Assembly: GCA_963771045.1 (NCBI GenBank)
Contig: CAVYRW010000004.1
Location: 672,001-736,000 of the forward strand
Direction: 5' to 3'
DNA: 64,000 bases
Origin: Waddliaceae bacterium
GTDB lineage: Bacteria; Chlamydiota; Chlamydiia; Chlamydiales; SLFE01
Below are positions 46,238-48,656 of the stretch, piece by piece. Under the pieces are notes generated by a model. The model saw only the letters and a program-made list of their open reading frames with translations, had not been told where the DNA came from and made no database searches. How positions within the stretch are numbered: the stretch's first letter is position 1; every line of letters starts with the position of its first letter. A program made the position numbers and the translations under genes.

Positions 46238-47455
46238 TTACTCTCCTTCTACATTTGCCAGGGCTGCAAGCAGATGGCTTTTTGTGATCACTCCCTTCAA
46301 TTGATTTTTTTCGTCGACAACAGCCACTGCAGCTGGAGATGCGAGGCTTTTTTCGATGATATCCTGAAGAGGAGCGTCTTCAGTTACCGCGATAAAGTCC
46401 TTCTGAAGAATTTTGTGAAGAGCAGCTTCTTTATTTCTGACAGCTTGGGCGACGTCTTCAGCTGTCACAAAACCGGCCAGTTTATAGTCGTTGTCCAAAA
46501 CAAAAATACTCGATATGTCTGCAAAATCCATTTTCCTGAGCGCCACGAGGGGTCCTTGATCCACATAGGCCACAGAACTGGGGCGCCGCATGGCCGAGCC
46601 TGCAGATAATACTTTGGAGACATCGTAGTGCTCAACAAAGCGTTCTACATATCTTGTCGAGGGGTTCATCAAAATTTCTTCGGCAGCACCGTCCTGGATC
46701 ATCTTTCCGTCCTGAATCAGCACAATCCTATCTCCTAAATTAATGGCCTCGTCCAAATCGTGAGTGATGAAGACTATGGTTTTCCTCATCCGTTTTTGGA
46801 GGGCAATGAGCTCGTCTTGCATTTCCCTTCTGTTCAGCGGGTCGAGGGCGCTGAAGGCCTCATCCATTAGGAGGATTTCAGGATCCTTTGCCAGGGCTCT
46901 TGCAAGGCCGACCCTCTGCTGCATGCCTCCGCTTAGTTCTTCGGGATAGGCGTCCTCCCTTCCCGACAAGCCGACGAGTTCCAGCGCCTGAAGCGCTTTT
47001 TCCTTTCTTGCTTTCAATTCAATTCCTTTGATTTCAAGGCCAAAGGCGGCATTGTCAATAATCGTTTTGTTGGGAAATAGAGCAAATTGTTGAAAAACCA
47101 TCCCGAATTTATTGCGTCTGAGTTTCCGGATTTCCGATTCATTCAAAGGAATAATGTCTTCTCCTTCAATCAGGATTTTACCGGAAGTTGGCCGGATGAG
47201 ACGGTTTATGCAGCGAATAAGAGTGGATTTGCCGCTGCCTGAAAGACCCATAACCACTAGGATTTCCCCTTTATTGATATTAAAGGAGATGTCTCGCAGC
47301 GCCACAATTTGATTGGTTCGGTTTTTGATGTCGCTATTGGAAATGTTTTGTTCGATTAGGGGAAGTGCCTGGTCGGGATGATTTCCGAAAACTTTAGTTA
47401 GATTTCTTATTTCAATTAACCCGCTTTTCTCACAGTCTCTTGGCCTATTTTGCAT
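46238..47455 (-). CDS. proV: Glycine betaine ABC ATPase with C-terminal CBS pair
   Basis: GLSGSGKS, LSGGMQQR, DEAFSALDP; first 13 codons lie in an inserted MITE. Confidence 0.93.
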   Translation of the reverse strand: MQNRPRDCEKSGLIEIRNLTKVFGNHPDQALPLIEQNISNSDIKNRTNQIVALRDISFNINKGEILVVMGLSGSGKSTLIRCINRLIRPTSGKILIEGEDIIPLNESEIRKLRRNKFGMVFQQFALFPNKTIIDNAAFGLEIKGIELKARKEKALQALELVGLSGREDAYPEELSGGMQQRVGLARALAKDPEILLMDEAFSALDPLNRREMQDELIALQKRMRKTIVFITHDLDEAINLGDRIVLIQDGKMIQDGAAEEILMNPSTRYVERFVEHYDVSKVLSAGSAMRRPSSVAYVDQGPLVALRKMDFADISSIFVLDNDYKLAGFVTAEDVAQAVRNKEAALHKILQKDFIAVTEDAPLQDIIEKSLASPAAVAVVDEKNQLKGVITKSHLLAALANVEGE

Positions 47456-47606
47456 AAAACTCTCGTCGGTCTAGTGCTCTGTCGCCCTAAATCTTTAAGT
47501 TGACAGAGCACTAGTTTTAAAACTATGTCACTCCTCCAAGTTTTTGCAAACTCAGACCAACATGTTGCTTAAGCTTGCCTCGAGATCCTGTGAGAAAAGC
47601 GGGTTA
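47417..47606. mobile_element. MITE-like element with TA duplication inserted in the proV 5' end
   Basis: Perfect IR TAACCCGCTTTTCTCACAG (47417-47435 / 47588-47606); removal restores ATG ACT TCT CTA ATT GAA ATA in frame from an ATG overlapping the lpxD stop. Confidence 0.85.
47471..47514. repeat. 44-bp CTAG-bounded palindrome nested in the MITE
   Basis: CTAGTGCTCTGTC-N18-GACAGAGCACTAG. Confidence 0.85.
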
Positions 47607-47612
47607 GAGAAG

Positions 47613-48656
47613 TCATGTTTCAAGTTCCTCGAGGCGTTTTTCAAGTTCTTTGATCCGGCTTAAGGTTTTCTCGATGCTCCTTAGGTGGACATCCATGCGG
47701 TTTTGGTCTGCCAGCCGCTGAGCCGGAATACCGCCATAAGCCCCTGGTTTTTCAAGGGATTTGGTCACACCGGAAAAGGCTCTGATCATCACGCCCGAGG
47801 CAATTTCAAGATGGCCGTCAATCGCGACTTTCCCGCCCATCATGACGTAGTCGCCGACTTTTGTCGATCCGCCGATGGCCGATTGCCCCACGATGATGCA
47901 ATGTTTGCCGATGTGAACATTATGGCCGATCTCGATCAGGCTGTCGATCTTCGTTCCTTCGCCGATTATGGTTTCATGAAAACGGGCTCTTGCGATCGTT
48001 GTATTGGCTCCGATCTCGACATCATCGTGGATTTCAACAATGCCGAAGTGATGGAGCTTCTGATGGTGCCGGTGTTTGTCTTGAGTATATCCGTATCCGC
48101 AAAGGCCTATGACGGCTCCGGGCTGAATAATGACCCGGCTGCCGATCCGGCATCGCTCTTTAATGACGACATTAGGATGGATGAGGCAGTCTTTGCCAAC
48201 GGTTGCTTCCAGTCCGATAAAACAGCCGGCGCCGATGGTGCTGCCGGAGTCGACAGCGGCATTTTTATCGATGACGGTATTCGGTCCGATCGAAACGTTT
48301 TCCCCAATTTTGGCCGAGGGGTGGATAGCGGCGCTCGGATGGATTCCTTTGAACCCTGTCGTTTCTTTTTTGTGGGAGTAGATCAGTTCAACGACTTTTT
48401 GAAAGGCTGCAGTCGGATCATCGGATAATAAGTAGTTGCGGGCCGACTTTCTAGGGACGTCGGGGCGGATAAAAATGACTCCGGCTTTTGAGTTTGCCGC
48501 TTTTTTTTCATAGCGTGCATTGCCGAGAAAAGAGGCATCGTTTTGGCTGGCGCTGCCCAGGTCGGCGACCCCGTCAATAGAATGACAGGGATCACCGATA
48601 AGCGTTGCATTTGTCAGATCAGCCAGCTCTTTGAGCTCGAATCTTTGCTTTTTCAT
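47613..48656 (-). CDS. lpxD: UDP-3-O-acylglucosamine N-acyltransferase
   Basis: Hexapeptide repeats, VEIGANTTI, TKIDSLIEIGHNV; follows skp. Confidence 0.94.
   Translation of the reverse strand: MKKQRFELKELADLTNATLIGDPCHSIDGVADLGSASQNDASFLGNARYEKKAANSKAGVIFIRPDVPRKSARNYLLSDDPTAAFQKVVELIYSHKKETTGFKGIHPSAAIHPSAKIGENVSIGPNTVIDKNAAVDSGSTIGAGCFIGLEATVGKDCLIHPNVVIKERCRIGSRVIIQPGAVIGLCGYGYTQDKHRHHQKLHHFGIVEIHDDVEIGANTTIARARFHETIIGEGTKIDSLIEIGHNVHIGKHCIIVGQSAIGGSTKVGDYVMMGGKVAIDGHLEIASGVMIRAFSGVTKSLEKPGAYGGIPAQRLADQNRMDVHLRSIEKTLSRIKELEKRLEELET

Follow-up and report, generated by a model that had tools for sequence, protein, structure and literature searches.

An insertion at the lpxD-proV junction

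On its minus strand, the window (the whole 64,000-nt stretch of Waddliaceae bacterium DNA analysed here) carries bamA-skp-lpxD followed by proV-proW-proX. We refer to the genome of the window as G000 and to its two congeners, with which it makes up a genus of three genomes, as G001 and G002. The features around the junction are as follows:

47613..48656, minus strand: lpxD, with a TGA stop that overlaps the native proV ATG (ATGA), as in G001
47569..47616, minus strand: native proV start, placed from G001 and G002, now a 15-codon upstream ORF with its TAA stop within the element
46238..47455, minus strand: proV/opuAA, an ATPase with a CBS region; 405 aa when read from the ATG of the element, without stop or frameshift
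45392..46228, minus strand: proW-type permease, intact, scoring under the NCBIfam equivalog cut-offs
44625..45395, minus strand: proX-type substrate-binding protein, putatively for an osmoprotectant, intact, scoring under the cut-off

A sequence-only reading of this locus had described 190 bp at 47417-47606 bounded by a perfect 19-bp inverted repeat, inserted at codon 4 of proV so as to break its stop/start coupling to lpxD. The sequence bears this out, and G001 has the empty ATGA junction. Removing the insert restores MTSLIEIRN behind the ATG at 47616 that overlaps the lpxD stop, and with the insert in place this ATG yields the proposed 15-aa peptide. The in-frame ATG that the element was said to supply (47455) does open an ORF of 405 aa, which passes the TIGR01186 proV cut-off with 442.6 bits against 326.6. 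Its residues 14-403 align intact to the solved homologue 7ahc_D.

The junction is empty in both congeners (2/2), with the ATGA overlap and MTSFIEIKN in G001 and MTSLIEVNN in G002. Since it is uninterrupted in both, we place the insertion on the G000 line; precise loss in both congeners is less likely. The element-derived extension is therefore no N-terminus conserved among relatives, a possibility that the sequence-only reading had left room for.

With one query, a ProV orthologue was found in 3 of 31 related genomes, namely G000 and the two congeners. An orthologous proVWX (window 44625-47455) attached to the lpxD operon was likewise seen in this genus only among the 31 genomes, and may represent a genus-level acquisition. 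Elsewhere in the neighbourhood, a 100-aa ORF at window 51720-52022, between recR and bamA, shows a RING-like Cys/His pattern by eye and has no NCBIfam match. The G001 orthologues (L277) of bamA and recR have one and two stops, respectively, in translated alignments.

An outer element with IS1380-type ends

The insert consists of two elements, one inside the other, and the flanks of the outer one:

47420..47603, no strand: outer MITE, IS1380 family, 184 bp with the nested unit and 144 bp without it
47604..47607, minus strand: 5' copy of the target duplication, CTAA, comprising the proV Leu4 codon and one base; a family-level 4-bp YTAR duplication
47416..47419, minus strand: 3' copy of the target duplication, TTAA, with one mismatch to CTAA
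47472..47513, no strand: IS630-family mini-MITE in a CTAG site, with duplicated TA on either side of a 38-bp hairpin (47474-47511)

The outer element has perfect 16-bp terminal repeats at 47420-47435 and 47588-47603 and contains no transposase gene. The 19-bp repeat recognised earlier is real, but three of its bases belong to the target duplication, so that the element proper spans 47420-47603, and the nested unit at 47472-47513 had been overlooked. We draw these borders with a 4-bp duplication carrying one mismatch because the duplications of the family are 4 bp. Exact 4-bp direct repeats flank 24 of the 41 paired outer elements, 14 of them non-palindromic, and a non-palindromic inverted flank pair was seen in 0/41; this count keeps two doubtful rows and overlaps with a set of eight informative copies, six of which have 4-bp direct repeats while two fit TA. 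The proV copy on its own (CTAA/TTAA) would be compatible with a TA model too. Filled and empty sites in G000 and G001 agree with a 4-bp duplication, and in one such pair CTCAG is duplicated at a site without TA, the sole 5-bp case. Target duplications in the IS1380 family range from 4 to 5 bp. That of IS1247 is given as 5 bp in PMC3281130.

In being a MITE, with 184 bp, perfect 16-bp ends, dispersed copies and empty sites, the element agrees with what had been proposed. Neisseria Correia elements target TA, and both TA targeting and the analogy to them had been proposed for the outer element. Neither stands: the outer family duplicates 4 bp, TA duplication belongs to the nested unit, and the outer ends are shared with IS1380 transposons. 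From its consensus ends, its 4-bp duplications and the one 5-bp case, which it has in common with IS1380 insertion sequences (NF033539, PF13701), we assign the outer element as an IS1380-derived MITE. It differs from them in lacking a transposase and in its fold-back interior of ~150-170 bp, which by eye has no likeness to the interior of the insertion sequences. The proV copy further differs in its nested second element and in an A-to-T change at one base in each end, where it departs from the family ends. Homogenisation of the arms after insertion found no support, as this symmetric change is common to sister copies, in a count from which one mis-registered row was dropped. The idea that element length is always a multiple of three was also dropped (true for only 13/41 overall and 3/22 in G207).

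The 190-bp stretch has a predicted fold of -83.5 kcal/mol (z -9.0), and 0/200 shuffles were equally stable; the stability of the stem is far above chance. As had been noted from the sequence, the 3' arm covers codons 7-13 of the ORF from ATG 47455.

A second element nested in the first

Sister outer copies have a single CTAG where the proV copy has a 40-nt addition, and they align to insert positions 1-59 and 95-190. The TTAG/CTAG flank pairs of the nested family fit a TA duplication and not a 4-bp one. An element of ~1.2 kb with the same ends carries an IS630 transposase (L192:235-1440). We assign the nested unit as an IS630-derived MITE that duplicates TA within CTAG, and which shares its ends and duplication with IS630 insertion sequences (NF033545, PF13358) by way of the L192 element. 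Unlike these, it has collapsed to 38 bp, and G000 holds only a 47-residue IS630 transposase remnant. The end motif of the nested unit was found in 14 of 251 genomes of the order and, among the matches listed, in Planctomycetes, Desulfobacterota and others. Another 29 matches to the nested end, in viral sequences, looked like chance coding matches and were discarded as relatives. Adjoining the L192 element is an 868-bp unit with the same ends (L192:1445-2312), part of which may resemble the 3' end of a group II intron.

Spread of the outer family and its transposase partners

Other copies of the outer element had been anticipated in the genome, and a profile search found 14 outer-family loci in G000, to which an end-motif scan added a few half copies. 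Within the order, 15 of 251 genomes have the outer end motif, with a patchy distribution among families (reversed-pattern control, 2). The 2.2-Mb genome G207 has 288 ends of the family, and only a transposase fragment was found there. Most sampled G207 copies are 165 or 168 bp long, which together with the duplication is not a multiple of three.

Two elements pair outer-family ends with a transposase. On a viral contig (L102/L103), a 1,706-bp element that carries an IS1380 transposase has the consensus ends on either side, and in G242 (L146) such ends flank an intact IS1380 transposase, where a CCTG variant is common to the transposase-adjacent end and some MITE copies. Matches to PF13701 were found in 5 of 251 genomes of the order (E<=1e-15). 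The cognate transposase that had been looked for in G000 did not turn up: no IS1380 transposase was found in G000 or G001, and no intact partner for either family in the G000 assembly, which is 90.6% complete and could for that reason lack the gene. PF13358 had zero matches in G000, PF13586 had one, and PF01609 had 51, which were not sorted one by one for outer or nested ends. No multicopy insertion sequence with either type of end was among the matches listed from a self-comparison of G000, and a plasmid collection had zero matches to a G219 copy. A 1,103-bp pair in L050, considered as an insertion sequence, proved to be two decayed MITE ends flanking an ordinary gene. G000 as a whole is rich in insertion sequences, with at least ten multicopy types and further MITE families, and two transposase matches lie at window ~29500-31400.

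Sister copies at other genes

Nine G000 copies overlap coding sequence, and an open frame is left in all nine. Six provide a new start (proV, dinG, nqrC, nadC, a potB-like gene for which only distant orthologues are available, and one unnamed gene); the other three add 53-54 residues in frame, in folE (at codon 7), recD2 and yidD, at sites that are empty in G001 and G002. Apart from proV, their locations are:

G000:C4:476177-476334: in-frame insert copy in recD2
G000:C4:1406106-1406260: in-frame insert copy in folE
G000:C4:212242-212396: in-frame insert copy in yidD
G000:C4:588036: terminal-repeat-ATG copy at nadC
G000:C4:329599: terminal-repeat-ATG copy at nqrC
G000:C4:1825962: terminal-repeat-ATG copy at the potB-like gene
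G000:C4:1487244: terminal-repeat-ATG copy at the unnamed gene (C4:1487253)
G000:C1:47175-47337 (L285:3176-3338), and L295 in G001: copy between rpoD and dinG/yoaA, the closest sister

At nadC, nqrC, the potB-like gene and the unnamed gene, the ATG of the terminal repeat is in frame, and the ORF from the old start stops ~10 nt or less from it. In the dinG and proV copies this ATG has been lost through the A-to-T change and an internal ATG is in frame instead. The same element ATG as in proV is the only full-length start of dinG in both G000 and G001: at the old start position G003 has GTG while G000 and G001 have ATA, with 53 codons to the next ATG. The two dinG copies differ by a 9-nt indel that preserves the frame, and dinG, with a dN/dS of 0.116, remains under purifying selection. 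ATG 47455 is a feature of the family and not a local invention, and the sister copies likely keep other G000 genes working as well.

Seven of the nine coding copies lie within the first seven codons or at the start, compared to only 482 of 17,947 coding YTAR sites (2.7%, from rough gene calls). This bias may be partly explicable without selection, because the target at dinG, nqrC and potB is a stop codon, that of the upstream gene; this is not so for proV, nadC and folE. We read the pattern as a survival filter, in which disruptive insertions would have been purged. It is repeated in three of the four G001-only copies looked at (two new starts and one in-frame insert), and in-frame inserts also occur in G219, G211 and G207. 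That of G219 lies in aroB (L144) and that of G207 in another gene (L344), which we take to be purL-like.

State of proV and its probable new start

Two features bear on translation of the interrupted gene:

47420..47455, minus strand: element-derived start and 12 codons (MQNRPRDCEKSG), with an ATG that the dinG copies of G000 and G001 share
47460..47464, minus strand: GAGAG, a weak Shine-Dalgarno-like sequence 4 nt ahead of the ATG that the element supplies, -3.0 kcal/mol

ATG 47455 is the only in-frame ATG, GTG or TTG before GTG 47305, ~50 codons on. A protein started at GTG 47305 would lack part of the alignment to OpuAA, which sets in at residue 5 of the latter. The ATPase alignment to OpuAA begins at the first residue after the insert, and the 12 new residues would stand in for MTS ahead of the folded domain. 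Shine-Dalgarno energies at 13 other starts range from -1.7 to -11.8 kcal/mol, compared to the -3.0 at ATG 47455. By folding, opening the start region costs 7.6 kcal/mol, within the 5.4-11.0 of 11 native starts. Holding the upstream arm open changes this to 7.1 kcal/mol, so the start becomes no easier to open; a release of the new start through translation of the 15-codon ORF found no support here. The in-frame ATG is in itself weak evidence for function, because the element has one to offer whichever way round it lies, and the required phase is found at about half of coding YTAR sites.

The three transporter genes are intact. Relative to G001, proV, proW and proX have zero stops and zero gaps, with dN/dS values of 0.098, 0.075 and 0.077, where seven neighbours range from 0.070 to 0.189. 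Substitutions in proVWX number 42 nonsynonymous and 76 synonymous on the G000 branch and 25 and 73 on the G001 branch (Fisher p 0.14), in a comparison with a saturated outgroup and lpxD (11 vs 11) as the sole control. The higher number of amino-acid changes on the G000 branch tends to favour relaxed selection. In the proV copy itself, four of 141 sites carry private substitutions, to which are added two insertions of 1 nt each, an in-frame deletion of 21 nt and the nested unit. This suggests that it is not new, with the reservation that its age is uncertain and the private changes could stem from a lost donor. Given the age that these changes suggest, a dead operon would likely show damage.

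We consider it probable (roughly 70%) that proV is still translated from the element's ATG 47455, uncoupled from lpxD and probably weakly. The main competing account, to which we give markedly less weight, is that proV was recently silenced, either by the insertion or by the nested hairpin that came later, leaving the operon a pseudogene still free of decay. The weak Shine-Dalgarno sequence, the lost coupling to lpxD, the strong hairpin between the stop of the short ORF and the new ATG, and the excess of amino-acid changes on the G000 branch, non-significant as it is, would all fit silencing. So would the accessory nature of the transporter, deduced from the few related genomes in which the single query found an orthologue. 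However, ~2.8 kb without inactivating changes and normal pairwise dN/dS leave room for silencing over at most ~7% of the G000 branch by our estimate, and the private changes suggest that the copy is older than that. The element also lies in the first codons of proV and not at any of the nine YTAR sites further downstream, and in two species dinG has its start within the same context of 16 nt. Of the suggestion that the MITE rewired or possibly silenced the gene, the uncoupling from lpxD thus stands, while silencing is the less likely branch.

Adoption of the element as a regulatory RNA, with the stem cut by RNase III or changing state in step with lpxD translation to make osmoprotectant uptake conditional, seems improbable. 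The stem is stable, rnc is present in the genome, and transcripts containing Correia elements are documented to be cut by RNase III (PMC10969869). Yet such processing may occur without being selected, and a stem is a property of all family members. The insert is present in one of three genomes of the genus and is hence not conserved, folding revealed no switch in how accessible the start is, and a search of 46800-48200 returned zero Rfam matches (E<=1). Less probable still is an assembly artefact or minority allele. Two small-share DNA runs gave no coverage of the junction, and rpoD on contig C1 (L285:1506-3173) is split over several frames, making indel errors probable in that contig. Against this, the proV copy is the only one of its kind in the genome, without a near-identical donor that could have been mis-joined. 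Its duplication is proper, its flanks on the 2.29-Mb contig C4 are intact, and G001 shows the same pattern independently.

If proV is translated from the element, its history may have run as follows. An IS1380 transposase acting in trans would have inserted the MITE at the CTAA of Leu4, and the copy would have persisted because the gene was left translatable. The donor may have allowed some re-initiation, since in the sister on C1 the frame entered from a Leu codon comes to a stop with ~30 nt left to the internal ATG. Provided that they arose in place, a 1-nt insertion and the IS630 hairpin would later have moved this stop 113 nt away. Ribosomes leaving lpxD would now read the 15-codon ORF and terminate 113 nt short of the new start, so that ribosomes would have to initiate anew at a weak site to make ProV, and probably less of it would be made.

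Relation to known repeats

In behaviour, the outer family resembles the Rickettsia palindromic elements (RPEs), repeats of ~150 bp that lie in frame in unrelated genes and add a related peptide, as PMC10969869 describes. Outer-family inserts likewise add a related peptide in frame in folE, recD2, yidD and the G219 aroB. The two belong to different lineages, and the outer family has an identifiable IS1380 partner. The proV copy, with an insert of 188 nt that is out of frame, is a restart and not an in-frame insert. Mycobacterial MIRU are mobile repeats located where genes start, with a short ORF that passes its ribosomes on to the gene (PMC12548453), and the nadC, nqrC, potB-like and C4:1487244 copies, with a short ORF ending near the new ATG, are alike in this. 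In proV, by contrast, close coupling of the MIRU type is unlikely because 113 nt separate the new ATG from the upstream stop of the short ORF, and the outer element differs from MIRU in its insertion-sequence-type ends and target duplication. With Correia elements it shares being a MITE with a stable stem in a co-transcript, a possible RNase III substrate, and mutually nested MITEs are described along with RNase III cutting of Correia transcripts (PMC10969869). The outer element differs in having no TA duplication, and a promoter and terminator scan found no such site inside it. Repeats bearing start codons are also described, in PMC3184786. No prior description of the outer family in chlamydiae was found in the literature, most subscription journals lying outside the search.

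The phenomenon is thus known in outline, and we regard proV as a real, well-controlled instance of it: a dated natural example, with empty-site controls, in which a transposon remnant appears to have replaced a gene start and broken the translational coupling of an operon. It ties RPE- and MIRU-like behaviour to a named transposase family, and mobility and restart thus become testable in a laboratory strain. For annotators, the nine G000 genes with element-derived N-termini or inserts are a warning.

A wider reading of the family

More tentatively, the family may have been selected as a transposon that is harmless in every YTAR phase and so generates new N-termini and inserts across the order. 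In the Leu-codon phase, this would allow in-frame read-through or restart at the internal ATG; in the second phase, restart at the terminal-repeat ATG, fed by the old start of the gene; and in the third, the stop codon would merely be duplicated. An unrelated transposon would then have landed in the restart device in proV and retuned it. The idea of such a design is weakened because the end ATG simply belongs to the transposase-binding repeat, and because most G207 copies are not multiples of three in length.

Where G001 has a copy at L019, the element is missing from G000 (C4:347366) along with a few bases beside it, and the native start is joined in frame; this is possibly an imprecise loss of the element. 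At L309, a different palindromic repeat forms an apparently in-frame insert in the N-terminus of the G001 yidD.
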